DNA from: a virus
Taxonomy: Duplodnaviria; Heunggongvirae; Uroviricota; Caudoviricetes
DNA: 19,828 nucleotides
Virus record (IMG/VR): IMGVR_UViG_2874920711_000008
Strand: one strand, 5' to 3'
The notes beneath the pieces were generated by a model. That model did no database searches. It had not been told where the DNA came from and worked only from the letters and a program-made list of their open reading frames with translations. A program made the position numbers and the translations under genes. The number at the start of each line of letters is the position of its first letter. The stretch's first letter is position 1. Of this stretch, positions 1,510-19,828 are shown piece after piece.

Positions 1510-1852
1510 TAACGCTGCCGACCGGTACCAGAATCTGGATCATCGCTGGCATCACAGATATGCGTTGTGGCTTCAATGGCCTGGCTTCGAAGGTGCAGAA
1601 CACGCTGAAAGATGACCCGTTCTCCGGGCATATCTTCGTCTTCCGGGGCCGCAGTGGCAAAATGGTGAAAATACTGTGGGCCGATCGTGACGGGTTATGC
1701 CTGTTCGCCAAACGCCTGGAACGGGGCCGCTTCGTCTGGCCGGTGACCCGGAAGGGAAAGTGCACCTGACGCCAGCTCAGTTATCCATGCTACTGGAGGG
1801 GATCGCGTGGCAACATCCCAAACGGACAGAACGGCCTGGCATCCGGATATAA
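1506..1852 (+). pseudogene. tnpB: IS66 TnpB, reading frame broken near 1750-1760
   Basis: MITLPTGTRIWIIAGITDMRCGFNGLASKVQ...ILWADRDGLCLFAKRLERGRFVWP matches the IS66 TnpB pattern. The ORF stops at 1769, but the next frame continues VHLTPAQLSMLLEGIAWQHPKRTERPGIRI to a stop at 1850-1852. The break sits in CCCGGAAGGG. Confidence 0.8.
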
Positions 1853-1871
1853 CCCGTGATAAAACAAGGGA

Positions 1872-3427: not shown

Positions 3428-3448
3428 TCCTTACGCTACGTACTTCTC

Positions 3449-3459
3449 GGGGCGCTTAC
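3449..3459. repeat. IS66 right terminal inverted repeat (GGGGCGCTTAC)
   Basis: Exact reverse complement of 753-763. Confidence 0.8.
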
Positions 3460-3460
3460 T

Positions 3461-3766
3461 GAAAAAGCAGAAACCAAAGGCGCGAAAGCCGCAAAGAACA
3501 GCGCTGCACAGGAAAACCCGGCACCGCTGGCAGACGTTATTGTGGCTGACGGTCAGGCGAATGAACCACGTCCGGCTGAAGACCCGGTTGCTGTACAGGG
3601 TGACGCCCCTGTCCGGCTGAACGTCAGGGCCGTGTCTGAAAACGGGTTCTGGCGCTGTGGCCGTTTCTGGTCACATATCGGTGAGGATGTGGCGGTGAGC
3701 GCTGCGGTTGCCACCCGCCTGATGGCAGAACCGAATCTGATTGTCCGGGAAGCGGAGAAAGGCTGA
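3461..3766 (+). pseudogene. 3' fragment of a phage structural gene (likely the gene upstream of Mu gp36), cut by IS66
   Basis: An open frame runs from the IS boundary (...EKAETKGAKAAKNSAAQENPAPLADVIVADGQANEPRPAEDPVAVQGDAPVRLNVRAVSENGFWRCGRFW...) to a stop at 3764-3766 that overlaps the next start. It has no credible native start; the tracked ORF begins at a GTG at 3542. Confidence 0.4.
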
Positions 3767-4203
3767 TGGGATACATCACGCAGGAAGACCTGTTACGCGC
3801 GGACGGCAATCTTGTCTGGAACATGGCGATTAACCGGGAAACCAACGGGCTGGATGAAGACAAAATCCGTCAGGCCATCAGTGATGCGGAAGCGGAAATT
3901 GATTCGTTTCTGTCCCGCCGCTACCAGCTGCCGCTGGGGGTGACGGAAATCCCGCGCCCGCTGCAACGCGTGGCGGTATCGCTGGCGTTTTACTGGTTAT
4001 CAGAGCGTGACAATCAAATCACGGAGCTGATCCAGAAACGCTACGACGACGCCATTAAAACCCTGCGTGAAATGGCGAACGGCACCCGTGACCTGGGCCT
4101 GCCGACGTATGCCACCCCGGCAGAAACCGACAACGGGAAAATTATTGTGGTGGGTGCCAATGCCCGGCTGTTCACCCGTAACAACCTGAAAGGGGTGCTG
4201 TGA
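3766..4203 (+). CDS. Mu gp36-like phage protein (DUF1320 family)
   Basis: 145-aa ORF, ATG overlapping the upstream stop (TGATG), just upstream of the tail genes. Family assignment is from memory. Confidence 0.55.
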   Translation: MGYITQEDLLRADGNLVWNMAINRETNGLDEDKIRQAISDAEAEIDSFLSRRYQLPLGVTEIPRPLQRVAVSLAFYWLSERDNQITELIQKRYDDAIKTLREMANGTRDLGLPTYATPAETDNGKIIVVGANARLFTRNNLKGVL

Positions 4204-4745
4204 TGGGGATTTCTGTACAGGTCAGCGGTGACCAGCGTCTGGAGGATATCCGCCGCGCCGTTGAAAAGCTGGCAGAGGGTTCATTGCAGTCAGAGCTGCT
4301 GGAAAGCATCGGTGCGGTGGTGGAATCACAGACCCGCCGCCGCATCATCGATGAGAAAACCAGTCCGGGTGGCGAACGCTGGCCGGACTGGTCTGACGGG
4401 TACAAAAAGACCCGCCACGGCAACCAGAGTCTGCTGCGCGGTGAAGGCCATCTGCTGGAGAGTATCCAGTACATCGTGGAAAACCGCGTGGTGCGTATCG
4501 GTTCACCGCTGGATTATGCCCGCATCATGAATGACGGCTTTTCCGGCAGCGTGCCGGTCAGCGCCCACAAACGGCTTATCTCGCAGTGTTTCGGGCGGGC
4601 GCTGAAATATCCGGTCTGGCAGACCGTCGGCGCACATCACCGCATGATGAACATTCCGCAACGTGAATTTCTGGGGCTGTCTTCTGCCAGCCAGCAGGAG
4701 CTGCAACAGGTTATCAGTCATTTCTGGAAGGAGGTTCTGCCATGA
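4203..4745 (+). CDS. Phage virion morphogenesis / tail completion protein (Mu G / P2 gpS-like family)
   Basis: ~180 aa with ...RRRIIDEKTSPGGERWPDWSDGYKKTRHGNQSLLRGEGHLLESIQY...REFLGLSSASQQEL, typical of this family. ATG at 4203 overlaps the upstream stop; stop overlaps the next start (ATGA at 4742-4745). Confidence 0.6.
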   Translation: MGISVQVSGDQRLEDIRRAVEKLAEGSLQSELLESIGAVVESQTRRRIIDEKTSPGGERWPDWSDGYKKTRHGNQSLLRGEGHLLESIQYIVENRVVRIGSPLDYARIMNDGFSGSVPVSAHKRLISQCFGRALKYPVWQTVGAHHRMMNIPQREFLGLSSASQQELQQVISHFWKEVLP

Positions 4746-5353
4746 CAGAACAACGCCCTGAACTGCGCACACCGGGGAGCACCGTTGCGGCCGCAGAGCA
4801 CATTGTGGCCTGGCTGCAGACGGCCCTTCAGGGGGACACCCCTGACCGGGCTGACGTGGTGGAGCGTCACATCGGCCAGTTCAACAGCCCGGATGAAGTG
4901 AAACGCTATCTGTCCGGTCGCACCGGCTGTATCCGTGTCGCGGCCCTGCGTGTCCGGGATATCAACCCGCGCGGCGGGCTGTCCGGTCTGGTCACCTGGG
5001 TGGCTTACATCATGGCGACGGATTCGTGGGGGTATTCCCGCGACGTGCGCTGTGAAGTGCTGGCCGGAAAGGTGATCAAACGCCTGCTGTCGTCGGATGC
5101 CACAGCGGGCATGGGGGCTGAACGCATGGCTGCTGATGTGCGGGCAGACAACATTTACTCCGTCAGCCTCGACGGGCTGGGTGTCACCATGTGGGCGGTG
5201 ACGTGGGAGCAGGAATTCCGGCTGGATGAAGAGATTGATCTCGCCGCGCTCCCGGATTTCCTGCGCCTCGGGGCGACACTGCGCAGCGGCGAACACACTG
5301 AAATTAACGACGTGATCCATGTACGGGGTGACGATGGAACAGAAACTGATTAA
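4742..5353 (+). CDS. Mu gp37-like phage protein (DUF1834 family)
   Basis: 203-aa ORF in the conserved position between the morphogenesis gene and the sheath gene; translationally coupled upstream. Confidence 0.5.
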   Translation: MTEQRPELRTPGSTVAAAEHIVAWLQTALQGDTPDRADVVERHIGQFNSPDEVKRYLSGRTGCIRVAALRVRDINPRGGLSGLVTWVAYIMATDSWGYSRDVRCEVLAGKVIKRLLSSDATAGMGAERMAADVRADNIYSVSLDGLGVTMWAVTWEQEFRLDEEIDLAALPDFLRLGATLRSGEHTEINDVIHVRGDDGTETD

Positions 5354-5518
5354 GCCAGCGCGGGAAAACGTCCGTGTCCGTAAACCGGATGGCGCACATT
5401 TATCCCGGAAGGGGAACGTCTCAACGTCTGCGCTTACTGGCTGCGCCGTGAAGCCGAGGGAGATGTGGAAATAACCACACTTCCGAAAAATAACAACAAA
5501 ACCAGAGGGAAAAAATAA
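5334..5518 (+). pseudogene. Small (~60 aa) phage protein upstream of the sheath gene, frame break near 5405-5415
   Basis: ATG at 5334 gives MEQKLIKPARENVRVRKPDGAHLS..., then the next frame reads EGERLNVCAYWLRREAEGDVEITTLPKNNNKTRGKK with a stop overlapping the sheath ATG (TAATG at 5516-5520). The break is in CCCGGAAGGGG. Confidence 0.3.
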
Positions 5519-6992
5519 TGTCGCTGGGTTCCATTCCTGATGATATCCGCGTCCCGCTTGTCTGGATCGATATCGACAATTCACAGGCGCTGGAGGGTGC
5601 ATCCGCGCAAAGCCGAAAAATTCTGGTCATGGGCCATGCGGTATCGTCCGGCAGCGCAGACGCCCTGTCACTGACCCGTATCACCAGTGACAGCCAGGCA
5701 GACCAGCTTTATGGCAAAGGGTCGATGCTGGCTGAAATGCTCAAAATGCTGCGTCGTGCCAACACGTACACGGAAACCTGGGCGATGCCGGTTGCCGCTC
5801 CTGAAGGCGCTGCCGCAAAAGCCACGCTGACCGTGCTGGGTACAGCGACCGAAGCCGGAACGGTGGCACTGCTGATTAACGGTGTGTCCGTTCAGGTGAG
5901 CGTGAGCGCCGGGGATACGAAGGAAAACATTGCAAAAGCCATTGCTGATGCGGTGACGAAAAAGCCTGCCACGCAGGTGGCCGCTGCGGTGAAGGATGAT
6001 GCCACGGATACCGTGGAGCTGACCGTGAACTGGCACGGCGTCACCGGCAACGGTGCCGACGTTCGCCTGAACTACCACACCGGTGAAGCCTTCCCGGCAG
6101 GTGTGAAGGTGACCGCAACCGCGTTTACCGGCGGCACCGGGACACCGGAAATGGCAGACGCCGTTGCGGCCATCGGCCCGGAGTGGTTTACCGATATCAT
6201 CGCCCCGTTCACCGACACGAAAAGCCTGAACACCCTGCGTGATGAACTGCTGAACCGCTGGGGCCGCTCAAAATGATGGAAGCGCAGCTGTGGACGGCGT
6301 TTTGTGGCACGCACGGGGAAACCGGCACGTTTGGTGAAACCCGCAATGACTGGCTGATTAGCTGCATCGGCACCAACCTGTCGCCGCATCCGGCGTGGAT
6401 GTGGGCCGCGTCATACGGCGCAACGGCAGCGTATCACCTTGCCATTGACCCGGCGCGTCCGCTTCAGACGCTGGTCCTGACCGGCATTCTGCCGCCTGCG
6501 CGTAATGTTCGCTGGGATATGCCGGAACGTAACCTGCTGCTGCATGACGGCATTGCCACGCACATGGTGGACGCCGGGGATAACGTCTGCATCGAGCGTG
6601 AAATCACCATGTACCGGGTTAACCAGTACGGTGATGCGGATGTGTCGTATCTTGATGTGCAGTCACCCGCCACGCTGGGCCGTATCCGTTACATCATTAA
6701 AAACCGTTTCTCGAACCGTTATCCGCGCCACAAGCTGGCGGATGATGACGTGCTGGACTCGCTGGATGCGGGGCAGCCGGTGATGACGCCGAAGCTGTGC
6801 ACTGCAGAGCTGCTGGATATCTGCCAGACCGAACTTCTCCCGGCGGGCCTTGTGGAAAACTTCAGCGATTACAGGGACACGCTTCAGGTGACACGCGACA
6901 GCAGCGATAAAAACCGCCTGAACTTTATCTGCCACCCGAATCTGGTGAACCAGTTGCGTGTGCTGGCAGGCCTGATTCAGTTCAAGCTTTAA
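5518..6992 (+). pseudogene. L: Contractile tail sheath protein (Mu L-like), split into two ORFs near 6270
   Basis: ORFs 5518-6276 (252 aa) and 6273-6992 (239 aa) are adjacent, same strand, together ~491 aa, followed directly by the tube gene; they join through a one-base frame change. Confidence 0.8.
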
Positions 6993-7001
6993 GGGGGCCA
7001 C

Positions 7002-7358
7002 ATGGCAAAAATTCTTGGCATGGCGACCATTCGCGTGAATGGCCGCGAAATTAAAACCGAGGGGAAATCCACGCTGAATCCGGGCGGCTTCAGCCGCACC
7101 CAGCATATGGGCGGCGGCAAGGTCTGGGGTATCTCCAGCAAGATGGCCTCGCCGTCCATCAAGGTAACCATTGCGGCGGCAGCGGATATGGACGTGATTG
7201 AAATCAGCAACTGGGAAGATGTCACGGTGATGTTCTACGGCGACAACGGCCTGAACTACATGATGACGGGTTCCGCCACGGATAACCCGGCAGAGCTGGA
7301 CGAGGATTCCGGCACCATCAGTGCCAACTTTATCGGTGAAAAATGCGTGAAGGTGTGA
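7002..7358 (+). CDS. M: Tail tube protein (Mu M-like)
   Basis: 118-aa ORF immediately after the sheath gene (MAKILGMATIRVNGREIKTEGKSTLNPGGFSRT...); size and position are canonical for a myovirus tube. Confidence 0.75.
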   Translation: MAKILGMATIRVNGREIKTEGKSTLNPGGFSRTQHMGGGKVWGISSKMASPSIKVTIAAAADMDVIEISNWEDVTVMFYGDNGLNYMMTGSATDNPAELDEDSGTISANFIGEKCVKV

Positions 7359-7359
7359 C

Positions 7360-7755
7360 ATGGCCGCAATGGAATTTGAACTGAAACACGGGCTTCTGAC
7401 CGGCAAAGGCACGGCAGATGAAACCCTGCATAAAACCGTGAAACTGCGCGAACTGACCGCCAGTGATGTGATTGATGCGCAACTGGCCGCAGAACGCGTC
7501 GTCATGGGCGGGAACGGAAAGGCGGTGGCCTACTGTTCTGAGGTGCTGATGGGACTGGAGATGATGCGCCGTCAGGTTGCGTCAATCGGTAATATCCCCG
7601 GCCCGCTGGACATGAAACAGCTGCGAATGCTCCACCCGGCAGACCTTGAGCTTATCAGCACGAAAGCGGCTGTGCTGGATGACATGCTTGAGGAGGTGGC
7701 AACGCGGGGGCGAACTGATGCCGCTGGCGTCGGCACTGATGAACCTGCTGGTTAA
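7360..7755 (+). CDS. Tail assembly chaperone (Mu gp41-like)
   Basis: 131-aa acidic ORF between the tube and tape-measure genes, the conserved chaperone position. Confidence 0.6.
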   Translation: MAAMEFELKHGLLTGKGTADETLHKTVKLRELTASDVIDAQLAAERVVMGGNGKAVAYCSEVLMGLEMMRRQVASIGNIPGPLDMKQLRMLHPADLELISTKAAVLDDMLEEVATRGRTDAAGVGTDEPAG

Positions 7756-7855
7756 CCTGTCTTCGCGATTCAGCATTCAGTACCTGGAACAGCTGCCCCT
7801 GCAGCAGTTGTTCCGCCTGATAAAGCAACTGGAGAAACAGCATGGCAACAGGTAA
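7646..7855 (+). CDS. Alternative-frame extension of the tail assembly chaperone (candidate frameshift product, G/GT-like)
   Basis: An ORF in the +1 frame overlaps the chaperone 3' end, encodes a helical-looking peptide (...LMPLASALMNLLVNLSSRFSIQYLEQLPLQQLFRLIKQLEKQHGNR) and ends just inside the tape-measure start (7842). Confidence 0.4.
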   Translation: MSLSARKRLCWMTCLRRWQRGGELMPLASALMNLLVNLSSRFSIQYLEQLPLQQLFRLIKQLEKQHGNR

Positions 7856-9682
7856 CCGTCTCAGCACGGAAATCATGATCAACCTTGCCGGGAACCTGAC
7901 CGCCAAAGCCCGGCAGTACGGTGCAAACATGTCGCAGTTCGCCCGGAACAACCAGAAGGCCATGCGCCTGGTCAAAGCCACAACGGAGGCTGCCGGGCGC
8001 AGTCTGGATGCGCTTGGCAACCGCTACACGGCGATGATTGCCGGGTTCGGTGGTGGTATGACCCTTAAAGGCCTGACAGATTTTGATGCGCAAATCCGCC
8101 GTGCGGGTACAAATGCAAAACTGACCGATGAGCAGGTATCCCGTTTAAGAAAAAACATCCGGGAAACCGCCAGAATGTCAGACATTCGCCTCAGTGCCCA
8201 GGTCTTACTGGAAGGCCAGGATGCACTGTATGGCCTGACCGGTAAGCCGGAATTTGTTGAAAAAAACATCCGCAATCAGGGCTGGCCACGCAGGCATTCG
8301 GGACTGCGCCACAGGATGCCGCGGCACTGATGGCACAGATGTCCGAAAAACAGATTGAAGCGCCTCAGGAGGTTGAAGGCATGTTCGACCGCTTCTACCA
8401 CCAGTTTTCCATTGGTTCGGTTGGTGTGGATCAACTGGCGCGTGTATCAGCAAAACTGTTTTCGATTTATACCGGTGGTGGCAAAGAGGCGATAGCCCAG
8501 TTGGGGCACTTGAACAGATGCTGGCAAAAACAACCGGCTCTGCGGATGAAGCGGTGACCGCGCTGAACAGTATCTGGAGTGAAGTCACCCGAAAAGACAA
8601 TATCAAGTTTCTGAAAAGAAACGGGGTTGATGTGCTTGATCCTGTCACAGGAAAACCCCGTCTGCCTTATGACGTAATCAGAGACGTTGTCAGGCGGGCA
8701 AAATTTAATGAGCAGAACTTGCAGGATGTTTTCGGGGATACTTCCATGCGTGGATTAAGGGCACTGCTCAGTGAAGACGCCCTTCAGCTAACAGAAAAAA
8801 TGATTTACGCCCCGGTTGAATCCGGTGCCATGAGAAAAGCTGCGGAGAAAAACGCCCGGAGTTTTCAGTCTGCGATGCAGTCCCTGAAGAATGAATATGA
8901 GGTTTTTGCTGAAAAAAATCTGGCAAAACCCGTTCAGGACCTGGCGGATGCCATCAACAGCGTGGACCAGAACTGGTTGCAGGTCGGTAAATATATGGCA
9001 ATTGCGCTGGGTGGCATTATCGCCGTACGTAAGACGTACAAGCTCGGTAAAACCATCCACGACATCATGAATCCCAAAGGGAAAGGCAAAGGGATACCCG
9101 GCGGTATTACGGATGTTTTCGGCTCCGGCGTGATGCCGGTGTATGTGGTCAATATGGGCAGTGGCGGGATGAACGGCAATGTCGGTGGTCTGCCGGATGC
9201 GCCGGATTCATCACGCAATCCCGTAACCCACGCAATCCACGAGGTCCGGGTAACCGCGGAGGTAATGCGGGCAAAGGCGCTGGCATCATCGCCGGTGCCC
9301 TGGAATTTTACGATTTTCTGACCACGCAATACGCCCTGCCGGGTGAGATTGACAGTCTTACAAAATCCGTGGCCGGTGATGCCAGCGCCAGCCCGTGGGA
9401 GCGCGAGTTCGCGCAACAAAGCCAGGATAACCAGAAAGCGCTCGAGTCCGTCTGGCGTAAGGTAACGGACTGGTTTAATTCGCTGGGTGACAAGAACATT
9501 GCCGACCCGCGACCGTGGGCAGGTATGCAACCCACACAGAATTATCCTTTCCTTCCGCAACAATTGCAGGGGAAATCCGTGTGGTGGTGGAAGGTGATGC
9601 CCGCGTGAAAAGCGTCAGAGTGGATCAACCCGGCGTCAGACTCAGTGCGCAGGCTGGCGTCACCAGCGTGGAGCAGGGTTAA
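7842..9682 (+). pseudogene. Tail tape measure protein (Mu gp42-like), split into at least 4 ORFs
   Basis: Co-linear ORFs 7842-8330, 8330-8557, 8518-9321 and 9369-9608 in frames 0, 2, 1, 0, plus a final stretch ...VVVEGDARVKSVRVDQPGVRLSAQAGVTSVEQG ending at 9680-9682 (TAATG overlap with the next gene). Total ~613 aa. The adjacent frame reads cleanly across the first break (...GLATQAFGTAPQDAAALMAQMSEKQ...). Confidence 0.75.
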
Positions 9683-10953
9683 TGACAACGAGCAACGGTA
9701 AATGGGACGGGCTGCGCGACGCCTCGTTTCGTGGCGTCCCCTTCTTTCTGGTGGATACGGAGGGCACCGGTGGTCGTCGTGCCATTCCCCGTGCTTATCC
9801 CCGGCGTGAAACCGCCTGGACGGATGATAACGGGGCCGTTCCGGGGCAACAGCAGATTAACGCAAAGCTGCCAGGTAAAAACTTCCGGGATGATTTAAAC
9901 GCCCTTTTAGATGCGCTCAATACCCCGGCCCGGCGAGCTTGTCCACCCGTGGTTCGGGATACAGACCGTACAGGTTGGCAAGGTCACCCATCGCCTCTGC
10001 ACGGAGGAAGACGGCATTGCGTATGTCACCTTTGAAGTGTTTGAGGCAGGCGAGCGCCTGTTCCCGTCTGCGGCGGATAACACGCAGCAGGAAGTGCTGA
10101 CAGGCATTGATGCGGTGAAAGCCGCCATTGACGATGGCGACTGGTTCGGCGCACTCGACGGGCTGGGTGACATGGCCGACAGTTTTCTGGCCGATATGGA
10201 AAACCTTGTGGCTAACCTGCCCACGTTACCGGCAGCACTGAATCAGTGGATGGACAGGCTGAAGCATTTTAAGGCGATGGCCGGAACCCTCATTGCCACA
10301 CCGGGGCGTCTGGTCAGTGAGCTGTCAGCACGGGTGGAAGATATTGCGGGCCTTGTGACGGAACCACCCGAAGCACTGGCGGTTTACACGACATTACGCA
10401 ACCAGTGGGCCGGAGAACGTGCCAGGCAGATTGCCACCGGCGCACTGCCGGAAGATATCACCGTGAAGCCCGGCAGCGTGGCAGACGGCAACCCGGCTTT
10501 GCCATCGGGCTGTCACCGGATTATCAGCCGGTATCTGACAGCCTGCAAAAGAACATTGACGACTTCCGCCAAGTGGTTGTGCTGGGAGCCCTGCTGGGAC
10601 AGGCCAGTGCCGTGGCCTCGATGACGTTCGATACCCGTGATGCGGCGTTATCTGCCGGTGACACGCTGGCGGCTGAACTGCATGAGCAGGCGGTGGCGGC
10701 GGTGGAAAACAACCAGCGGACATTGTGGCGAACGCTGCGCGATTTACGGCAGGCCGTGATTACGGATGCCCGCGAGCGTGCCGCCCGTCTGCCGGAAACC
10801 CGGCAGGTGACGCTGACCACAACCACCTCTGCCGCATTGCTGGCATGGCGCGAGCATGGTGACACACGCCGACGGGATGAAATCGTGCAGCGTAACCGCC
10901 TGCGTCATCCGTCATTCATCCTACCGACGCAACCTGTGGAGATCACCGACTGA
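9682..10953 (+). pseudogene. N: DNA circularisation protein (Mu N-like), frame breaks near 9925 and 10490
   Basis: The N-terminus MTTSNGKWDGLRDASFRGVPFFLVDTEGTGGRRAIPRAYPRRE matches the DNA-circulation N-terminal family, and ...PGELVHPWFG... continues in the next frame. Three ORFs (9682-10035, 9911-10624, 10405-10953) join through breaks in CCCCGGCCCGG and AACCCGGCTTT. Confidence 0.75.
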
Positions 10954-12018
10954 TGGAATCCGTGATTCTTACCGTTGACGGCAAACTGTGGGAAGGCTGG
11001 ACGGAAATGTCCGTCAGCCGTTCCCTGAAGGCGATTGCCGGTGAGTTTGAACTCAGTGTGACAACCCGCTGGTCAGCGGCGGCACCGCGCGTGATTCGTG
11101 AGGGGCAACCCTGCACGGTCAGGCTGGGCGCAGATACCGTGCTGACGGGGTATATCGATGATTTTATTCCCGGCTATGAGGCTGAAAACGTGGAGATTCG
11201 CGTCATGGGGCGCGATAAAACCGGCGACCTGGTGGACTGCTCTGTGGTGCATTCGTCCGGGAAATGGAAAGGCGTGCGGCTTGAACAGGTGGCGGCTGAT
11301 GTCTGCCGCCCGTTCGGGATAACCGTCATCACGGAAACCCCGACCGGGGAGGCATTTGCGTCTGTCGTTCTGGAACAGGGTGAAACGGGCTTTGAACTGC
11401 TCGACCGGCTGGCAAAACAGCGCGGCGTTCTGCTGACGTCTGACGGCGCGGGTAACCTGATTATCACCCGCGCCTCTTCCGTTCGCGCGGGCGTGTCACT
11501 GGTGCTGGGAAAAATATCCTCGCCGCCCGTGGGCGCTTCAGCTGGCGGGAGCGTAACAGCCAGTACATCATCAAGGGCACCACCAGTGCCCGTGGCAAAC
11601 TGTGGGACAGCCAGCCTGCCCGATGGTGGGCGGTCGCCAGTACATCACCGAAGCCCCGGAAATTAACCGTTACCGCCCGCGCATTCTGGTCAATGAAGAC
11701 AGCCTGACCGTGGGCGGGCCAGCATTCGCGGGAATGGTACAAAGCCCGGATGCTGGGAGAGTCCCGCACGACGGAAATCACGGTGGCAGGCTGGCGCGAA
11801 CAGGGCGACAGCGGCCCGCTGTGGCAGACCAACCGCCTTGTCGATATCGACGACAGCATTCAGAACCTGAAAACCACCTGGCTGATATCCGGGGTGACAT
11901 GGACGGATGGCGCACAGGGAGGATGACGGTTCTGGCGCTGGTTCCGCCTGAATCACTGGACATGCCGGAAATGAAAGCGAAGACGAAAAAAACAAAGGCG
12001 GTGGCCACATGGGATTAA
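10953..12018 (+). pseudogene. P: Tail/baseplate protein (Mu P-like, gp44), several frame breaks between ~11500 and ~11930
   Basis: A 237-aa N-terminal ORF, then plausible protein sequence alternating between frames (ENILAARGRFSWRERNSQYIIKGTTSARGKLWDSQ; RQYITEAPEINRYRPRILVNEDSLTVGG; EWYKARMLGESRTTEITVAGWREQGDSGPLWQTNRLVDIDDSIQNLKTTWLISGVTWTDGAQGG; MTVLALVPPESLDMPEMKAKTKK). Stop at 12016-12018. Confidence 0.6.
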
Positions 12019-12544
12019 ACGCAATTGCCCGCCGCCTGCGACTGATGGTTGACCGCGCTGTTGTCCGCCTGGTGTCTGACGGTCTGGCACGGCAGAACCT
12101 GCAAATTCAGACGCTGGCAGATGCCACCGATGACGACGTGGAACGCTTCCAGAACTACGGGTTTACGTCCGTTCCGCCGGAAGGTTCTGAAGCCATTGTG
12201 ATGGCCGTTGGCGGACGGCGTGACGGGCTGGTTGCCATCGCGGTGGAAGACAAGCGATGTCGCCCGAAAGGACTGTCCCCGGCGATGTCAGGGTGTATCA
12301 CCGGGACGGCAAATCACACATCACCCTGAAGGAAAACGGCGTCATTGAAATCACAGGAGAACAATTAGACTTTTCAGGGAAAACGGTAAATCTCACTGCC
12401 GACGAACTGCTGAATATTATCGGTAAACAAATGAAATTCGTCGGTCCCTGTGAATTCACTGAAGATGTCAGAATCAAGGGTAAATCATTCAGCGAACACA
12501 TTCATAAGGACGGCGACAATGAGAATACATCACCGCCCGTATGA
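12009..12544 (+). pseudogene. Baseplate assembly/spike protein (Mu gp45-like), one frame break near 12250-12300
   Basis: ORFs 12009-12329 and 12257-12544 are co-linear and read as one protein (MGLNAIARRLRLMVDRAVVRLVSDG...PGDVRVYHRDGKSHITLKENGVIEITGEQLDFSGKTVNL...). Confidence 0.7.
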
Positions 12545-12991
12545 CGACAGAAATCCGCTGGAATAACATGCTCTCACGGGGTGACATCACCGTCACCCAT
12601 AACGGCCTCTCACGGGATGAGGGCTGGTCACTCAGGTTCTTATCTGCCTTTTCACCGATGCCCGCGCTGATGACGATGATGTCATTCCTGACGGCTCCGG
12701 CGACCCGCGCGGCTGGCCGGGCGACACGTACAGCGATTTTTCGTGGGTTCCCGCCTGTGGCTGCTTGAGCGTGAAAAGCTGACGGAAGATGTCCGCCTGC
12801 GCGTGGAAGATTACGCGCGGCTGTCCATGCAGCCGCTTCTGCGTGCCGGTTACGCCCGTAACGCCACCGTCACGGCCAGCATCATCATTCCTGACCGTAT
12901 TGCCTTTCTGGTGGTGTTAACCCGCCCGGACAAAACCACACTCAGAATCGAAATCACCCGTCGATGGGAGGCCACCATTAATGCCGTATGA
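12541..12991 (+). pseudogene. Baseplate protein (Mu gp46-like, GP46 family), two frame breaks
   Basis: N-terminus MTTEIRWNNMLSRGDITVTHNGLSRDEG, a middle piece in another frame (...DDDVIPDGSGDPRGWPGDTYSDFSW), and a C-terminus in the third frame (GSRLWLLEREKLTEDVRLRVEDYARLSMQPLLRAGYARNATV...). Confidence 0.65.
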
Positions 12992-13953
12992 AATCCCCAC
13001 GCTGGGCAAACTGATTGCCGACGGCGAAAAAGATATTGCGTATGAACTCGGCCTGCAAAAGCTGCCGCCTGTCAGTGTTGAGCAGGCGCTGAACGTGTCA
13101 TTCAGCAGTCAGGTCCGGGATTTATACGACCATCAGAGCTGGATTAAGGACCAGATAATCCCGTCCACCACGTCTGATGATGAAACCATTATCAAAACAG
13201 CAAAGTATGAAGGCGTTATCCGCAAGCAGGCCACCTTTGCCAGCGGGCGGGTGACCTTCACCAGTCAGTCCCCCTTCCGGCAGAAACCCGGATGCAGTCC
13301 GACACGAACCAGGTGTATCAGGTACTCACGTCCGGCGAGGTGCAGGACGGCGAGGTCACCGTCATCGTGCAGGCTGAAGAAGCCGGTGTGGAGGGCAATC
13401 TTGCTGCCGGTGCCGTACTCACCCTGCTGTCCCCGCTGCCCGGAACGGCCAGCACAGGCGCGGTGGCTGAAGGTGGCATCACCGGTGGCGCAGACACTGA
13501 ATCCATCGCAGCGCTGCTGGACCGTCTGCTGTATGTGCGCCGCAATCCACCGACAGGCGGCGCGTTGCATGACTACGTGATATGGGCGCGTGAAGTGCCG
13601 GGCGTCAGCCGCGCGTGGGCGTGGGATGCATGGCACGGCCCGGCACGGTCGGGCTGGCATGGCTTTATGATGACCGGGAAAACATCGTGCCAACCCGCGA
13701 AGACCTGAAGACAATGGAGCAGTATCTGTTCTGCCACAAACACCCGGCCACGGGCGTGATGGTGGGTAAACCGGGCGGCATTGAGGTCTGGCCGGTACAG
13801 GTCAGGCTGAAGAAAGTCAGCATATCCATCCGTCTGACACCGGACAGCCTGGCGAACAGGAGCGCCGTCCGGGCAAACCTGACCGCGTTACAGAAGACAC
13901 TGGCACCCGGTCAGACGCTGCCGGGCGGTTTACCTGTATTGATGGCGTCATGA
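12981..13953 (+). pseudogene. Baseplate J-like protein (Mu gp47-like), split into three ORFs
   Basis: ORFs 12981-13580, 13292-13708 and 13615-13953 are co-linear in frames 0, 2, 1; the real-looking parts (MPYEIPTLGKLIADGEKDIAYELGL...; ...EVQDGEVTVIVQAEEAGVEGNLAAGAVLTLLSPLPGTA...; ...LKTMEQYLFCHKHPATGVMVGKPGGIEVWPVQ...) follow one another. Confidence 0.7.
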
Positions 13954-14051
13954 CACCATTAATCAGCGAACGCACCCGTGAGCTGGAATGCCTGCTGAAG
14001 CATTACCGGCTGGCGGGCACGGAATATGAATATTATTACACCGGAGAATAA
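13950..14051 (+). CDS. Short ORF (33 aa, MTPLISERTRELECLLKHYRLAGTEYEYYYTGE) between the baseplate J gene and the fibre gene
   Basis: ATG overlaps the gp47 stop (ATGA); its own stop lies 3 bp before the fibre ATG. It sits where a Mu gp48-type gene would be but is far too short. Coding status is uncertain. Confidence 0.25.
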   Translation: MTPLISERTRELECLLKHYRLAGTEYEYYYTGE

Positions 14052-14162
14052 TTTATGTTTTATGTGGATAACCCGACGGGTGTGCCGGTAATGCCACCTG
14101 TCGCGGCTGAATTAAGCAAAACAACGCTTTATTTCACCGAAGGCGGGAACGGTATTCCGCCC

Positions 14163-14172
14163 ACGTATCCGG
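14163..14172. repeat. Left copy of the 10-bp direct repeat CGTATCCGGG (target-site duplication of the IS4-family element)
   Basis: Identical 10-mer lies immediately outside both CTGA...TCAG termini (14163-14172 and 15472-15481). Confidence 0.7.
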
Positions 14173-15471
14173 GCTGAGGGATCCCCACAAAATTACTGCT
14201 AATAAACCAGCACCATATTTCGGTAGGTTCTGGACAGATGGTTTAGAACTGTGCTCAGTACTGTTCGTCTTAAAATAAGTGGCGAGTGTCGAAGAACATT
14301 CTTCGCTAACGTCAGATATGAGATAACCCGCCGGGATTTAATGCTGTTAGCCTGATATTTCAGGTGTAACCCTTTATTTTCAGCGTGATAACCGAGTAAC
14401 CACATTACGATAGTGCTCAACGTTGCCAGCAGACTCAGAACCAGAATTCTTCCTGTTGAACGACTTTTGCTGGCCCGAAGACCAAATCCGAAGCGCCCGT
14501 TCTTTTCATCACGAAAGTTTTGCTCTATCTGCATTCGCCGACTGTATAACTTGATGATTTCTCGCGCTCTGAAGTCATTTGTACTGCTGAAGATCAACCA
14601 GGCTTCTTTTGCTGATTTGCTCTGTTCTTTGTCTGTTTTGTTTAAACCACTCTGACCTTTCGAACGTTTCTTTTTTCGCCCTTTTGCCGATTTCTTATAG
14701 GTGTAAAAATGCCCCCGGATGCTTTTTTTCCTTTCTTTAACCAGCCTTCCAGCCCCATATATTCCGGTGTTTTACATTCAGGGCTATCCGACACTTTTAA
14801 CCATCTTTCAGGCGCGTTATCGAGGCAATACTGAACGTTATTTCTGATCCGACCAATAAAATCCCAGCCCAGAGAAGTAATATGGTGAAACCATGCGCTC
14901 TGAAATCCAGCATCCGTGACAATAATAACCCTGGCATCGGGGGCAGGGATTGAGCAAGGGAATCAAGGAAATCATGTTGTATCAATGGATTATTTTGTTT
15001 TTCAGAAGGAACAACCTTACTCAATAACGGAATGGAACGCCCGTCACACAGAAGGCTGGCACGAAGAACATGATGCTCCTGGAGGGATAGCCACTCCAGT
15101 CTACGGCTATTACACATAAAGATAACTGCCGTGTCAGCATTGAAGTGATATTCCTGAAAATCATTGGAATATCGCGATGGAGCGCCTCATTACCCATGAG
15201 GCGATCAATACGTTTGCTCTTATTCTTAACTTGTGCATTACCCGGGAAAAAACGTCCGATACTGGTCAGCGTCAGAGATGCTCCGTTGATTAACGCCACT
15301 GTGGCATCCATCAGGGCATTTTGTCGGTACTGATGAAATGGTGCTAAGGCATCCCGGAAGAAATTCTGACATACTTTATGAACAGGCATAGCAGTGATCT
15401 CATTGAATTGTTGGCACAAATCAGTAGATCACATAATGCTATGTCTGTCTCGTTTTCTGGGGATTCCTCAG
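14173..15471 (-). mobile_element. IS4-family (IS10-like) insertion sequence, 1299 bp, inserted in the tail fibre gene
   Basis: Termini CTGAGGGATCCCC (14173-14185) and GGGGATTCCTCAG (15459-15471) are inverted repeats with one mismatch and resemble the IS10 outside end (CTGAGAGATCCCC). Flanked by the 10-bp direct repeat. Contains a minus-strand IS10-like transposase. Confidence 0.8.
14199..15389 (-). pseudogene. IS4-family (IS10-like) transposase, in at least 4 frame segments
   Basis: Minus-strand segments align in order to IS10 transposase: N-terminal (...TLTSIGRFFPGNAQVKNKSKRIDRLMGNEALH...VDWS), middle (...HVLRASLLCDGRSIPLL...VIIVTDAGFQSAWFHHITSLGWDFIGRIRNNVQY...) and C-terminal (...IFSSTNDFRAREIIKLYSRRMQIEQNFRDEKNGRFGFGLRASKSRS...). 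One break sits at a T7 run (14723-14729). Confidence 0.8.
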
Positions 15472-15481
15472 CGTATCCGGG
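15472..15481. repeat. Right copy of the 10-bp direct repeat CGTATCCGGG
   Basis: See 14163-14172. Confidence 0.7.
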
Positions 15482-16372
15482 GCCGGACTGGTTTAATATT
15501 ATTCAGTCTGAATTACTGGAAATACTCCGGCAGGCAAATATCAAACCGGATAAAAACACAACCGACCAGATTATGACAGCGCTGAAAAAACTGTTTATTA
15601 CGAACAGTGGTTCAGCCGGAGCTATTGCCGGATTAACCGGTCAGAATAATACATTCCCTTATTTTACCGGCAAAGACACAATGGCATTAACACCGCTCAG
15701 TGCGTTTGTGCGCAGTATTCTCGGGAAAAACAGCGCCAGTGAATTTATTAAAGCAATCGGCCTGTCACCAGACATCCTTTTATCAAAAGGACCGGTGACA
15801 GCATTAAGCAGTACAGCACAGGGCAATGCAGGACTTCAGATGTATGAAGTGTACAACAACGGCTATCCCACAGCTTATGGCAATGTTCTGCATCTGAAAG
15901 GCGCGGCAGCATCTGGCGAAGGCGAACTGCTGATTGGCTGGAGTGGCACGAGCGGTGCACATGCTCCGGTTTATATTCGCTCAAGGCGTGATACCACCGA
16001 TGCAGTCTGGTCTGAATGGGCGCAGGTGTTTACATCAAAAGACAGCTTCAACGCAGCATCCGCCACAAAACTACAGACCCCACGCAAAATTAACGGTACG
16101 GCATTTGATGGCACCAGAGATATCACCATCAGCAGCACCGATTCTGGTGCAGTACGTGATTTCAGATACACCAGCGAAGTGTTTCACAATCCCGGTGGTA
16201 ACGAAATTTCCTGGGTATTCCGCGCGCCTTCAGGGTGTATTTTGTCAGGTATTAACGTTCAGGAAACTGGCAAAAGCTCTGCGGATAACATCGGGGGTGT
16301 GTATTACAAACAAACTCAGATTTATATCAATGGCGGATGGCGCACGGTATCCGGCTAATTAAGGAGAAAATA

Positions 16373-16903
16373 ATGGAACTCAGAAACGTCACGCGTTATT
16401 ACCCGGAAGAAATGCCTTATGGTGAAAACATTCAGTATTTCCGCAGTGAAGACGGACAGGATTTTTATGAATCACTGGATAAATTCACGAAGAAATACAA
16501 ATTATGTATTCACCCGGAAACCGGCGTGATTTATTCAATGGCAGAAGACGTGTCTCGTCTTTATCCTGTTGGTTTTACCATTGTGGAAGTGGATGAGCTG
16601 CCGGAGGGTTTTGACATCGAAGCCAACTGGTATTACCGGGATGGCGAAGTACTGCCAGTTCCTGTTGATTATTCGAAACTGGCAGAAAAGCAACGTCAGC
16701 GCTTGCTGAATGAAGCAAAGGAAATCACTTCCGACTGGAAAACCAAGCTGGAGCTGGGCACCATCAGCGACGATGACAAAGTCCGTCTTACGCAGTGGAT
16801 GGAATATATCAAAGCGGTGAAGGTGCTGGATTTAAGCACTGCTACCGATGAAATCTCCTTTGATGCCATCAACTGGCCGGAGCGTCCCGATGCCGCAGCT
16901 TAA
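16373..16903 (+). CDS. Tail fibre assembly chaperone (Tfa; Mu U / P2 G-like)
   Basis: AAGGAG SD 7 bp upstream of the ATG at 16373; ~176 aa; directly downstream of the fibre gene; Tfa-like features (...PEGFDIEANWYYRDGEVLPVP..., C-terminal ...DEISFDAINWPERP). Confidence 0.75.
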   Translation: MELRNVTRYYPEEMPYGENIQYFRSEDGQDFYESLDKFTKKYKLCIHPETGVIYSMAEDVSRLYPVGFTIVEVDELPEGFDIEANWYYRDGEVLPVPVDYSKLAEKQRQRLLNEAKEITSDWKTKLELGTISDDDKVRLTQWMEYIKAVKVLDLSTATDEISFDAINWPERPDAAA

Positions 16904-18296
16904 AGGTGTGATTAAAACGCCCACGGGAGAACCGCTGGGCGGCGCAACCATTACACTGACCTCCCTGCACAACCGTGCAGGGATTCTGAAAGGCGTTTTC
17001 AGCCACGTCACCACACAGAGCGGGGAGTATGACTTCCCCGTTCTGCCGGGCGTGTACAGCGTTCGCCTGACACAGAGCGCACAACGCCTTTCAGAAATCG
17101 GTGTCATTCGCGTTTATGAAGATTCAGCGGACGGTTCGCTGAATGATTTTCTGGGCGCAACTGATATTGACCTGCGTCCGGAATCCCTGAAGAAATTCGA
17201 AGAGCTGGCGCAACAGGCGCAGCAGAGTGCCGGGGCCGCAGCCGGAAACGCACAGCAGACGGCGCAGGATGTGGCGGCAGCCGCAACGGCCCGTGATGAT
17301 GCACAACGTTTTGCGGAGAAAGCCCGACAGGATGCAACCGTCACAGCTGAGGACAGAAAGGCCACTGCGGAAGATGTGACAAGCACAGGAGCAAATGCAG
17401 CCGCAGCCGGACAGAGCGCACAGGATGCCGCAGGTTATGCCCGCGCAGCAGAACAGGCCAAAAATGACATTGATGCTGCGCTGACCGGCACTCTGAAAAT
17501 GGCTAACCATCTGTCAGAAATCGCAGCAGCAGGCGAAAAGGCACAACAGAAGTCCCGGGATAATCTGGGGCTGAAAAGTGCGGCCACGATGGAAGCACAG
17601 AGCGACATTTACGACCGGACAAAAGGCCGTCTGGCGATACCCGGCGCATTCGGCTTTGGGTGTGCTTTTCTGCCTGAAGATGTTATCCGTTTTGACACTA
17701 AGAGTGATTTCCTGGCCTGGGTAAGGAATGCGCTGCCAGGTGAGTATTCCGTTGCTGGCCCCTACGGCATCATCATACCCGACACACGGTTTGAAGGGGG
17801 GCTCAGCATCCGGTGGACTGATGCACGCCCTGAGACAACAGAACCGAGGTACAGAGCCAAATCCCTTACTTTTTACGGCATTAACGGCCCCATTTATCAC
17901 ACCCGCTACTGCTACTGGCCCATATCCAGACTGACTGGCTGGGTGAAAATAAATATAACCACAGAAGATATTATTTACAGAATCGTGGCGAGCTCTGTCC
18001 GCAACAGATGGGGAGACCCTGACATTGGCGGGCTGATTATTGCTGCGTACCAGGGAAAAGCTGACGGTGATAAAGACATCAGACTTGTCAGGGGGCGGTC
18101 ATACAGAGGCTCACGACTGGGACCGGTGGGGATTTCAGCGCCCTGTACTCCCACCGGAACGCATATAGTATACCCACAATATTTCATTACGGGATGTTCA
18201 GAGCATTCATTACCGGGGTCATATTGCGCCCTGTCCGGGGTGCCGGATACATATGTCTCTGGCGCAATGCTTGGGCTTTTTATTCGCACATCGTGA
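16890..18296 (+). CDS. Second tail fibre protein with a lambdoid Stf-type N-terminal domain
   Basis: Intact 469-aa ORF from the ATG at 16890 (GGAG SD upstream; overlaps the tfa 3' end). N-terminus MPQLKGVIKTPTGEPLGGATITLTSLHNRAGILKGVF...VYSVRLTQSAQ...IRVYEDSADGSLNDFLGA resembles prophage side-tail-fibre N-termini, followed by an Ala/Gln-rich stretch. Confidence 0.7.
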   Translation: MPQLKGVIKTPTGEPLGGATITLTSLHNRAGILKGVFSHVTTQSGEYDFPVLPGVYSVRLTQSAQRLSEIGVIRVYEDSADGSLNDFLGATDIDLRPESLKKFEELAQQAQQSAGAAAGNAQQTAQDVAAAATARDDAQRFAEKARQDATVTAEDRKATAEDVTSTGANAAAAGQSAQDAAGYARAAEQAKNDIDAALTGTLKMANHLSEIAAAGEKAQQKSRDNLGLKSAATMEAQSDIYDRTKGRLAIPGAFGFGCAFLPEDVIRFDTKSDFLAWVRNALPGEYSVAGPYGIIIPDTRFEGGLSIRWTDARPETTEPRYRAKSLTFYGINGPIYHTRYCYWPISRLTGWVKINITTEDIIYRIVASSVRNRWGDPDIGGLIIAAYQGKADGDKDIRLVRGRSYRGSRLGPVGISAPCTPTGTHIVYPQYFITGCSEHSLPGSYCALSGVPDTYVSGAMLGLFIRTS

Positions 18297-18306
18297 GGAA
18301 TGCACT

Positions 18307-18872
18307 GTGGAAATTAAAAAAATCATTAATCCCCGTTATACCGAAAGTGGCGCAGTAGACTGTGACGTTTTTTTGACGACAGGGACCAGGCAGTCCCCTA
18401 CACAGCCACCGCTGATGATGTCGCTCCGACGGGTCAGCAAATCTGGCAGGAACTGCAAAGCGGCAAATGGGGTGAGATAGCCCCATTCACTGTGACACCA
18501 GAAATGCTGGAAGCGGCCAGAGAGGCCAGACGTCAGGAAATTGAAGCATGGCGCACAGAACAGGAGGCGAAGCCGTTCACGTTTGAATGGAACGGTCGTA
18601 TCTGGGATGCTGGCCCCGACTCACTGGGCCGCCTGTCCCCGGTGGTCATGCTGGCAAAATCTGTCGCGGCACAAACAAATATGACGTGGAGTGATGCGGA
18701 TAATCAGCAGGTGCAGCTGACGACGCAGGAACTTGAGGAACTGGCCACAGCGATGATACAGGCCATTGTTGAGCGCAACGATGAGATTTATCGCTGTCAG
18801 CGGGAGATGAAAGAACAACTTTCTCTGTTGCCCACACTGGACGAGGTGAGAGCGTTCAGACCAGGCGATTAA
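18307..18872 (+). pseudogene. Tail fibre assembly protein with DUF4376-like C-terminus, frame break at a T7 run (18368-18374)
   Basis: GTG at 18307 after a GAGGA SD reads VEIKKIINPRYTESGAVDCDVF; after the T7 run the next frame continues FDDRDQAVPYTATADDVAPTGQQIWQELQSGKWGEIAPFTVTPEMLEAAREARRQEIEAWRTEQEAKPFTFEWNGRIWDAGPDS... to a stop at 18872. One extra T restores a single ~188-aa ORF. Confidence 0.6.
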
Positions 18873-18894
18873 ATAATCAGTTTGTATAGTTTAT

Positions 18895-18996
18895 GACGAT
18901 CGATAGAATCATATCGATCGTCGGTTTGCATCAAGTGTGATTAAATACCCCCAGCCCTCCGGGCAGCGATATCCTGTTATTACACTGGGGGAAATT
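18895..18996 (+). promoter_or_regulatory. Putative mom-operon regulatory region: GATC-containing palindrome (18904-18931) plus a C/G-rich segment upstream of com
   Basis: Perfect 11-bp inverted repeat GACGATCGATA/TATCGATCGTC around a 6-nt spacer holds two GATC sites (18907-18910, 18925-18928); then CCCCCAGCCCTCCGGGCAGCGATATCCTGTTATTACACTGGGGG up to the com SD. Mu mom control is known to use Dam-methylated GATC sites and C-protein binding; assignment here is by position and analogy. Confidence 0.4.
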
Positions 18997-19182
18997 ATGG
19001 ACTCTGTTCGTTGTAAAAATTGCAATAAATTGCTGTTTAAAGGAGGTTTTAAGCATATAGAAATCAAATGTCCTCGCTGTAAACGTTACATTGTCATATC
19101 GAGTGCCCGGGAGCATCCCACGGAGCTGTATTGTGGGAAAAGAGAAGAAATCACGCATTCTGACAAAACCCTGCGTTATTGA
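18997..19182 (+). CDS. com: Com, zinc-finger translational activator of mom
   Basis: 61-aa [64 protein letters not shown] with a CxxC...CxxC...C arrangement, recognisably Mu Com; GGGG SD upstream; 3' end overlaps the mom 5' end. Confidence 0.85.
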
Positions 19183-19828
19183 GTATGAAGGCCGGATTGT
19201 CGGCTATGGTTCAAGGGAGCTGCGCGTTGAAACCATATCCTGCTGGCTGGCCCGCACAATCATTCAGACAAAGCATTATTCCCGCCGTTTTGTGAATAAC
19301 TCCTGGTTGCATCTGGGCGTATTCAGTGGACGTGATCTGGTTGGTGTTCTTCAGTGGGGATATGCCCTTAACCCCAACTCAGGGCGTCGCGTTGTGCTTG
19401 AAACGGATAACCGGGGCTATATGGAACTGAACCGCATGTGGCTACACGACGACATGCCCCGCAACTCTGAATCACGGGCCATCAGCTACGCGCTGAAAAC
19501 CATCAGGTTACTGTATCCGTCAGTGGAGTGGGTTCAGTCCTTTGCAGACGAACGTTGCGGGCGTGCAGGTGTTGTGTATCAGGCGTCAAATTTTGATTTT
19601 ATTGGCAGCCATGAAAGCACATTCTACGAACTGGACGGTGAGTGGTATCACGAGATAACGATGAATGCGATTAATCGTGGAGGGAAGCGCGGCGAATATT
19701 TACGAGCGAATAAGGAGCGGGCCGTGGCGCACAAATTTAATCAATATCGTTACATCAGGTTCCTGAACAAGCGCGCAAAAAAGCGACTAAACACTAAGCT
19801 ATTCAGGATTCAGCCTTACCCGAAGTGA
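19133..19828 (+). CDS. mom: Mom, DNA adenine modification (anti-restriction) protein; start uncertain (open frame from 19091, GTG at 19133 gives 231 aa)
   Basis: ...[99 protein letters not shown]... is recognisably Mu Mom; overlaps com as in Mu. The stop TGA is the last 3 bases of the window. Confidence 0.85.

Follow-up and report, generated by a model that had tools for sequence, protein, structure and literature searches.

The com and mom genes

The window, i.e. the whole stretch of 19,828 nucleotides that was analysed, ends on its right side with two overlapping genes, com and mom. The genes and their start signals are arranged as follows:

18987-18992, plus strand: Shine-Dalgarno sequence of com (GGGGGA)
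18997-19182, plus strand: com, from ATG at 18997 to TGA at 19180-19182, encoding a 61-aa zinc-ribbon protein of the translational activator type
19103, plus strand: alternative in-frame GTG start of mom, counterpart of the ATG behind the 241-aa numbering of Mu Mom
19133-19828, plus strand: mom, with GTG start, 231 aa, and TGA stop at 19826-19828

Both genes are intact, and the stop codon of mom is made of the final three bases of the window. The module was compared to those of phage Mu (Mu_52/Mu_53), phage D108 and Shigella phage SfMu, to which the DNA of 19007-19828 displays 87-88% identity. As in Mu, com precedes mom and the pair lies at the very right end of the prophage, and the overlap between them measures 50 nt, just as in the Mu record AF083977 (com 35768-35956, mom 35907-36602). 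The presence of a genuine com-mom operon of the Mu type was thus confirmed, the similarity being far beyond chance. The initial annotation had described a complete com-mom pair at the right end with an overlap as in Mu, which was borne out on both points.

Pairwise alignment of Com with Mu Com, which is one residue longer, revealed 44 identical positions out of 62 (71%, E = 8e-33). All four zinc-ribbon cysteines are conserved, C6, C9, C25 and C28 being aligned to C6, C9, C26 and C29 of Mu Com. A Pfam scan detected PF10122 with 30.5 bits (cutoff 22.9), and the Com protein of a prophage in E. coli FDAARGOS_943 is 100% identical to that of the window. A PDB sequence search with Com as query gave nothing at E <= 0.01. 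From the PF10122 match, the four cysteines, the position overlapping mom and the cognate RNA target (see below), the protein is assigned to the Com family. As in Mu, it would be expected to bind the mom leader RNA and to stimulate translation of mom.

Mom was aligned with Mu Mom over its whole length without any gap, with 220 of 231 residues identical (95%, E = 2e-173). The Pfam family PF25680 was matched with 254.2 bits (cutoff 27.1) over profile positions 1-202 of 202, and the entry 'Methylcarbamoylase mom' of the PDB (8bv8) was matched over the full length, also gap-free, with E = 1.4e-152. Com, Mom and the DUF4376 protein encoded just upstream gave no NCBIfam hit at E <= 0.001. PGAP gives the names Com and Mom to these proteins despite the empty NCBIfam scan, and Pfam was used instead.

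Biochemical work on Mu Mom, together with its crystal structure (Silva et al. 2026, PMC13219725), allowed the residues of the enzyme to be considered one by one. Mom belongs to the GNAT superfamily and acts as a Gly-tRNA(Gly)-dependent transferase, the product of which is N6-carbamoylmethyl-dA (6-NcmdA) (PMC13219725). The acetamido-adenine chemistry given in the initial annotation is therefore out of date. In the 241-aa numbering, residues R111, S124, D149 and R151 are required for the activity of Mu Mom, and W48, H58, Y59, Y159 and W181 contribute strongly to it (PMC13219725). All nine of them are conserved in the window protein, as are all the active-site and dimer-interface residues named in the same study. 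Residue Y28, for which the alanine mutant showed no significant effect in Mu Mom (PMC13219725), is also conserved. An HTH-like insertion (about residues 175-209), essential for activity and proposed to contact DNA (PMC13219725), is complete and gap-free. Four of the eleven substitutions that separate the window protein from the crystallised Mu enzyme are located in this insertion, namely K191N, Q195K, V198E and V209A. At the codon level, mom differs from Mu mom by 51 synonymous and 11 non-synonymous changes, and the excess of synonymous differences suggests past purifying selection. Judged by the PF25680 threshold, the activity residues and the HTH-like insertion, the protein is assigned to the Mom family, for which a similarity network of 9,647 sequences has been published (PMC13219725), and it is likely to be enzymatically active. 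Taken by its sequence, the operon looks functional. The exact Mom protein was found in 199 blocks of public assemblies.

The reading frame of mom is open from a TTG at 19091. The start in the Mu GenBank record is the GTG homologous to 19133, PGAP places the start at the equivalent GTG in a 98%-identical prophage of E. coli VL40, and the GUG start has been placed in the stem of the translation-inhibition hairpin (PMC6483171). Since the three sources agree, the start of mom was fixed at GTG 19133. The earlier proposal of a start other than ATG, with the frame open from 19091 and a GTG at 19133 giving 231 aa, proved correct. Mu has an ATG ten codons upstream of its GUG start, where the window has the GTG at 19103. 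In a second lineage of E. coli prophages this upstream codon is an ATG and is the one used by PGAP. A 231-aa form of Mu Mom ('Delta10') was reported to be active, while the recent biochemistry is numbered on 241 aa (PMC13219725). The 231-aa form is the one found in the GenBank annotation.

The mom leader RNA and the promoter region

Two hairpins were predicted in the RNA that precedes and includes the start of mom:

19103-19116, plus strand: predicted Com-target hairpin, stem GUGC/GCAU, hexaloop CCGGGA, with the motif CC(N)3GAG
19116-19138, plus strand: predicted translation-inhibition hairpin, stem UCCCAC/GUGGGA
19122-19125, plus strand: Shine-Dalgarno sequence of mom (GGAG), in the loop of the translation-inhibition hairpin, the 3' arm of which includes the GUG start at 19133

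The Com-target hairpin of Mu and its motif CC(N)2-3GAG were defined by SELEX and SHAPE, and Com was shown by experiment to bind this short hexaloop hairpin, which adjoins the translation-inhibition hairpin (PMC6483171). The model of translation inhibition itself goes back to Hattman and to Wulczyn and Kahmann, as summarised in PMC6483171.

Both hairpins are present side by side in the minimum free energy (MFE) fold of the 45-nt segment 19098-19142, in line with the start-sequestering hairpin expected in the initial annotation, and with a Com-target hairpin in addition. When 81-nt windows were folded, the z-scores were not significant and the MFE structure was unlike the expected hairpins. The fold z-scores of the leader, that of the 45-nt segment included, are not significant on their own because the sequences are short, and the argument for an RNA switch thus rests on homology to the characterised Mu element. 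This homology is close. The stem UCCCAC/GUGGGA is identical to that of Mu, where it likewise carries the GGAG loop and the GTG start, and both stems are kept in Mu as well as in two prophage lineages. The Com-target hairpin of Mu also displays a hexaloop with CC(N)3GAG, but has the loop CUGCGA and an A-U stem pair, whereas the window has CCGGGA and a G-U pair. The CC-NNN-GAG motif and the stem are maintained in three natural variants, of which the middle bases are UGC in Mu, CGG in the window and AAA in the prophage copies L012-L015. A scan of the whole window at the Rfam gathering thresholds detected no family, and Rfam holds no model for the mom leader.

Upstream of com, the following elements were recognised:

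18895-18922, plus strand: 28-bp palindrome GACGATCGATA-GAATCA-TATCGATCGTC, located between the DUF4376 gene and com and formed by a perfect inverted repeat of 11 bp
18898-18901 and 18916-18919, plus strand: two GATC (Dam) sites 18 bp apart inside the palindrome, each of them also a PvuI site
18954-18985, plus strand: putative activator-dependent promoter region, with the dyad GCCC-TCC-GGGC at 18954-18965, a variable stretch of 10 nt, and GTTATTACAC at 18976-18985

The palindrome is conserved in all 15 aligned prophage copies. In the alignment, its two GATC sites coincide with the first and second of three such sites in Mu Pmom and show the same 18-bp spacing, while the third one is absent from the window; at Mu Pmom, PvuI fragments of 60, 18 and 182 bp have been described (PMC3378877). 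The palindrome is therefore likely to correspond to the GATC cluster that lies upstream in Mu Pmom, a region under the control of Dam and OxyR, and a similar control may operate here.

The promoter itself differs from that of Mu. Mu C binds to a 16-bp imperfect dyad centred at -43.5, and the Mu promoter has a 19-bp spacer with a T-stretch (PMC2582627, PMC3378877). In the alignment to Mu, the C-binding dyad, the -35 hexamer ACCACA, the T-stretch and the -10 hexamer TAAGAT of Pmom were all absent upstream of com, the Mu dyad TTATGCCCCAATAACC being aligned to TTAAATACCCCCAGCC in the window. A scan of 18700-19300 for sigma-70 consensus promoters gave zero sites, which fits with an activator-dependent promoter but falls short of proof. 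Across the 15 prophage copies, the promoter region consists of a conserved block, a variable stretch of 10-13 nt and an invariant GTTATTACAC, a pattern that was seen in two prophage sub-lineages. A -10 assignment at 18968-18973 was considered and found unconvincing, as the hexamer varies among lineages (TATATC, GATATC, CATGTC, CGTATC). Position 18968 is a G in most Shigella copies (GATATC), and a T in the intact E. coli relatives and in the Shigella-series copy L004 (TATATC).

In an intact relative (L003), the start codons of lysis, protease and com are each preceded, at a distance of 43-53 nt, by the motif GCC(N0-1)TCCG(N0-2)CA. The plus strand of this relative contains six occurrences of the motif against 0.7 expected from shuffles, a count to be read with the post hoc definition of the motif in mind. 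As the motif was defined after the sequences had been seen, it is considered as a lead only towards a lineage-specific late-promoter element. Altogether, the window promoter appears to be related to Mu Pmom but of a different type, and presumably matched to the Mor-family activator of its own lineage. Transcription of com-mom probably depends on such an activator, an assumption that also leans on the post hoc motif.

An IS-truncated prophage remnant

The window is 100% identical to positions 3346919-3367614 of CP026824.1 (L006), a chromosome of the Shigella series. From 3460 to 19828, it is about 98% identical to complete Mu-like prophages of E. coli FDAARGOS_943 (NZ_CP065615) and VL40 (NZ_CM177011). 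Those two prophages have the same gene order DUF4376-com-mom and the same regulatory region, their Mom proteins differ from that of the window by one or two residues, and PGAP names the two proteins 'Com family...' and 'tRNA(Gly)-dependent adenine aminoacyltransferase Mom'. The com-mom pair described here is thus already known, its genes being named in near-identical E. coli prophages and its mechanism being published. The FDAARGOS_943 and VL40 prophages are complete: besides head and tail genes, they possess early, lysis and terminase genes and a Mor-family activator, and nothing interrupts their right end. In contrast, the window copy is truncated by IS66, interrupted by IS, and followed by an IS4 element 39 nt after mom.

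A megablast comparison of the whole window to 50,697 phage records gave matches to Mu, D108 or SfMu for 19007-19828 alone, and the rest of the prophage showed no similarity to Mu at this level. The upstream neighbour of com-mom also differs, being gin and the invertible G segment in Mu and the DUF4376 tail-fibre-associated gene in the window. By sequence, the prophage is assigned to a different Mu-like lineage of E. coli and Shigella, and not to Mu itself (Muvirus mu). It is a real remnant, from which the IS66-family element has replaced everything to the left of the gene that follows the major head gene; a host gene with a TPM domain is also found left of position 3460. From this locus, the genes for the repressor, the transposase and the Mor-family activator have disappeared, as have those for lysis, terminase, portal, protease and the major head protein. 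A tblastn search with the Mor-family protein of the relative gave no hit at E <= 10 in the window or within 10 kb on either side of eight Shigella copies. In the same genome (CP026824.1), a second copy beside typA-glnA (L005) is an even shorter remnant of the right end.

Beyond the window, IS4 is inserted in the terminator hairpin that follows the mom stop, with a 13-bp target duplication GCGGTTAATGCCG, and the right end of the prophage continues after it, to ...GCGCGCTTTA. The sequence common to Mu and the window prophage extends for about 40 nt beyond the mom stop and takes in the terminator hairpin. Both the absence of an own C activator, noted in the initial annotation, and the right end that it proposed to look for downstream were thus found.

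The tail genes appear shattered in the window. In the main alignment to FDAARGOS_943, 18 of the 19 single-base indels are -1 deletions in runs of G or C, and the last one lies in a run of A. In comparison to the same locus in CP027027 (L010), 16 out of 16 single-base indels are -1 deletions in G/C runs, next to one substitution, and the independent assembly AAMJ02 (L007) agrees with CP027027. Since two other assemblies of this locus lack these indels, most of the tail-gene frameshifts are assembly errors in CP026824.1. An old and heavily decayed prophage was rejected on the same grounds. The lesions common to CP027027 and AAMJ02 were considered as real:

about 835-3459: IS66-family element on the left side, truncating the prophage at window position 3460
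about 11510: frameshift at an A-run in a baseplate gene
about 13924: deletion joining the baseplate J gene to gp48
14174-15471: IS in a tail-fibre gene
18368: frameshift at a T-run in the DUF4376 gene
after mom, beyond the window: IS4 insertion

The genes found intact in these two assemblies are com and mom, the DNA-circularization gene, gp45, gp46, and the second tail-fibre gene together with its assembly gene. Because many genes of the remnant are intact in the cleaner assemblies, it appears to have decayed only recently, through the action of IS elements. Readers of this record should be warned that the prophage looks heavily pseudogenised mostly as a result of assembly artefacts. The intact 832-bp com-mom is also unremarkable, as its neighbours are intact too and the right end was spared by the truncation. 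Its integrity in an error-prone assembly was likewise considered and rejected as a sign of significance: com-mom holds four G/C runs of at least 4 bases, and with about 24% of such runs being shortened, the probability that none was hit is approximately 0.33.

Expression and fate of the com-mom operon

The best explanation is that a functional-looking com-mom operon of the Mu type is stranded in an IS-eroded Shigella prophage that is Mu-like but not Mu, has lost its activator and is most likely a silent leftover, a reading to which we give high confidence. As com-mom is a well-studied anti-restriction system, the significance of the locus lies mainly in its correct annotation, and what is added here is its context: a prophage other than Mu, a different type of promoter, a right end cut by IS4 and frameshifts that are artefactual. 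The operon looks functional but is orphaned from its activator.

The way in which the operon would work was taken from Mu by homology. A weak promoter without consensus -35 would need a late activator of the Mor/C family, and the upstream pair of Dam sites (GATC) would be expected to modulate it. From the bicistronic mRNA, com would be translated, and the CCCC zinc ribbon of Com would bind to the hexaloop hairpin at 19103-19116. This binding would open the adjacent hairpin at 19116-19138, which sequesters the Shine-Dalgarno sequence and the GUG start of mom. Mom would then be produced and would pass glycine from Gly-tRNA(Gly) to the N6 of adenine in double-stranded DNA, where the glycyl group would rearrange to N6-carbamoylmethyl-dA, a modification that would block many restriction enzymes.

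Since the activator gene has been lost together with the early, middle, lysis and head regions, com-mom is most likely transcriptionally silent, having been stranded not long ago and not serving as a function that the host maintains. The initial annotation proposed that the operon was either tightly silent or co-opted. Tight silence is plausible in view of these losses, whereas co-option found no evidence, many other genes of the remnant being intact in the better assemblies. No strong terminator was found between the upstream tail-fibre genes and com, so read-through from these genes into com is possible. In addition, a gene of the Mor/C type located elsewhere in the genome, or carried by a superinfecting SfMu-like phage, could activate com-mom in trans.

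It might be proposed that the operon is a silent reserve, switched on by the Mor/C-family activator of another Mu-like prophage or of a superinfecting relative, and that it would supply Mom during the lytic growth of the activating phage. The upstream regulatory region is 98-100% identical to that of intact relatives, a motif of this region also precedes the lysis and protease genes of an intact prophage, Mu-like phages of Shigella such as SfMu do exist, and several such remnants are present in the genome. However, no activator gene was found in any of the regions inspected (the window and 10 kb on either side of eight Shigella copies), and the G at 18968, a position of a possible -10-like hexamer at which the intact E. 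coli relatives have a T, could weaken the promoter. We regard such a reserve as unlikely, though as the strongest of the alternatives to a silent leftover.

The copy could also be cryptically dead, i.e. its frames would be open while substitutions in Mom, Com or the promoter abolish its function. The eleven substitutions in Mom would count for this, the more so as four of them fall into an insertion required for activity (PMC13219725), together with the merely 71% identity of Com to Mu Com and the T-to-G difference at 18968. Such a loss of function is improbable, considering that every experimentally important residue of Mom is kept, that Com and Mom are 100% and 99.6% identical, respectively, to their counterparts in E. 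coli prophages that appear complete, and that the changes in the loop of the Com-target hairpin preserve both the motif defined by SELEX and the pairing of the stem.

Finally, the module might have been domesticated, the host keeping com-mom for a benefit of low-level or conditional Mom production. The host might profit by shielding its own DNA, or DNA that enters the cell, against restriction, or by a toxic abortive response once a related phage provides C. Identical Mom proteins are indeed found in at least three chromosomal contexts of Shigella (T6SS genes, typA-glnA and mobA-dsbA), and one minimal remnant of about 1.6 kb (L008) has only DUF4376-com-mom beside an IS3-family element. There are also E. 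coli remnants in which IS3 or truncated tail-fibre genes adjoin an intact com-mom, and at the window locus the DUF4376 gene just upstream is truly frameshifted while com-mom is not. Yet a look-up by exact protein returns intact copies only and is thus subject to ascertainment bias, com-mom was spared by the left-side IS truncations through its position at the extreme right end alone, and many other genes of the remnant are intact too. Selection during the time spent in active phages can account for the excess of synonymous differences from Mu, no promoter of the host type was detected in the sigma-70 scan of 18700-19300, and Mom is cytotoxic if mis-expressed (PMC3378877). Domestication is therefore the least credible of the explanations considered, and it is very improbable. 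The same low credence is given to the broader idea that the intact com-mom at several independent IS-eroded Shigella remnants has been retained as conditionally useful, and is not merely undecayed. If this were true, one possible use would be that the late activator of a superinfecting Mu-like phage turns the operon into an anti-restriction helper or a toxic trigger of abortive infection.

If Mom were expressed in such strains, which is not expected, it would alter restriction patterns as well as the methylation calls from SMRT or nanopore sequencing.

A mosaic prophage and the genomic contexts of its com-mom module

The relation of the prophage to Mu was investigated by megablast of the whole window against 50,697 phage records. 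Mu-like DNA (87-88%) was restricted to the com-mom module (19007-19828), about 40 nt on its 3' side and a GATC pair on its 5' side. No megablast match to Mu-group phages was obtained for the structural genes (prophage part, 3460-19000). On the basis of this comparison the prophage is a mosaic and, because only the module and its flanks resemble Mu DNA, an exchange of com-mom among Mu-like lineages is suggested.

The identical Mom protein was detected in remnants occupying at least three chromosomal contexts in Shigella assemblies, two of the copies being present in the window's own genome (the window locus L006 and the second remnant L005).

Loci with the identical Mom protein
typA-glnA locus: L004, L005, L009, L011
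T6SS locus: L006, L007, L010
mobA-dsbA-polA locus: L008

The L008 remnant is reduced to about 1.6 kb (DUF4376-com-mom) adjoining an IS3-family element, and its prophage right end is unbroken. At the window locus, the right end is interrupted by the following element:

L006 10736-12258: IS4, immediately past the right edge of the window

A distance of 39 nt separates the stop codon of mom from the IS4 insertion, which lies within a terminator hairpin and is accompanied by a target duplication of 13 bp, GCGGTTAATGCCG. Beyond IS4 the prophage right end continues and finishes at ...GCGCGCTTTA. L005 displays the same mom-IS4 junction, yet host DNA near typA follows directly, which suggests an IS4-mediated rearrangement.

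Probable assembly errors and genuine lesions

About 20 one-base deletions were found between 5404 and 15080, nearly all of them within G/C homopolymer runs (for example at 5404, 6260, 8279, 9220, 9927, 11619, 12277, 13270 and 14938). The genes they disrupt are those for the sheath, tape-measure, DNA-circularization and baseplate proteins and those of IS elements. None of these deletions occurs in CP027027 (L010) or AAMJ02 (L007), two further assemblies of this locus that differ from the window by only 1-13 substitutions. From this comparison the deletions look like systematic assembly errors of CP026824.1 rather than pseudogenisation.

Two other lesions, both within 13906-15472, are real, since they are common to the other assemblies. 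One is a deletion which fuses baseplate J (at residue ~315) with gp48 (at residue ~152). The other is an IS of about 1.3 kb of the DDE_Tnp_1 family (transposase whole in L007, 407 aa) inserted in the first tail-fibre gene.

On the left side, the following features were identified:

1-813, minus strand: host gene encoding a TPM-domain protein
835-3459: IS66-family element encoding TnpA, TnpB and TnpC

The IS66-family element is located between the host gene and the prophage, and has replaced all of the prophage to the left of the gene following the major head gene. The reading frame of TnpC is broken in two at ~2864, which may be one more homopolymer artefact.

The region upstream of com

18253-18872: DUF4376 gene, associated with tail-fibre genes
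18954-18965: motif GCC(N0-1)TCCG(N0-2)CA (also at 2302, 10013 and 26900 in L003)

While Mu harbours gin and the invertible G segment at this place, the window prophage carries the DUF4376 gene. A real frameshift in a T-run at 18368 interrupts the gene in the window, and likewise in L010 and L007. The E. coli relatives have it unbroken (208 aa), as do L005, L008 and L009.

In the intact relative L003, the motif is located 43-53 nt 5' of the start codons of lysis, protease and com. Directly 5' of the lysis and protease copies lies a terminator-like hairpin, GCCGGTAAATCCGGC, with a T-run; it is identical in both cases. The motif, defined after the fact, is a candidate late-promoter element of this Mu-like lineage. 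Position 18968 is G (GATATC) in most Shigella copies, while L004 shares T (TATATC) with the intact E. coli prophages; remoter relatives display CATGTC or CGTATC. Given this variation, the hexamer, which lies upstream of com, is at best a tentative candidate for a -10-like element.

Database naming of Com and Mom

Neither Com nor Mom was matched in a scan of the NCBIfam library (E <= 0.001). PGAP designates Com in RefSeq relatives as 'Com family DNA-binding transcriptional regulator', which conflicts with its role as an RNA-binding translational activator. Three product names are in use for Mom across these relatives: 'protein mom', 'Mom family adenine methylcarbamoylation protein' and 'tRNA(Gly)-dependent adenine aminoacyltransferase Mom'.
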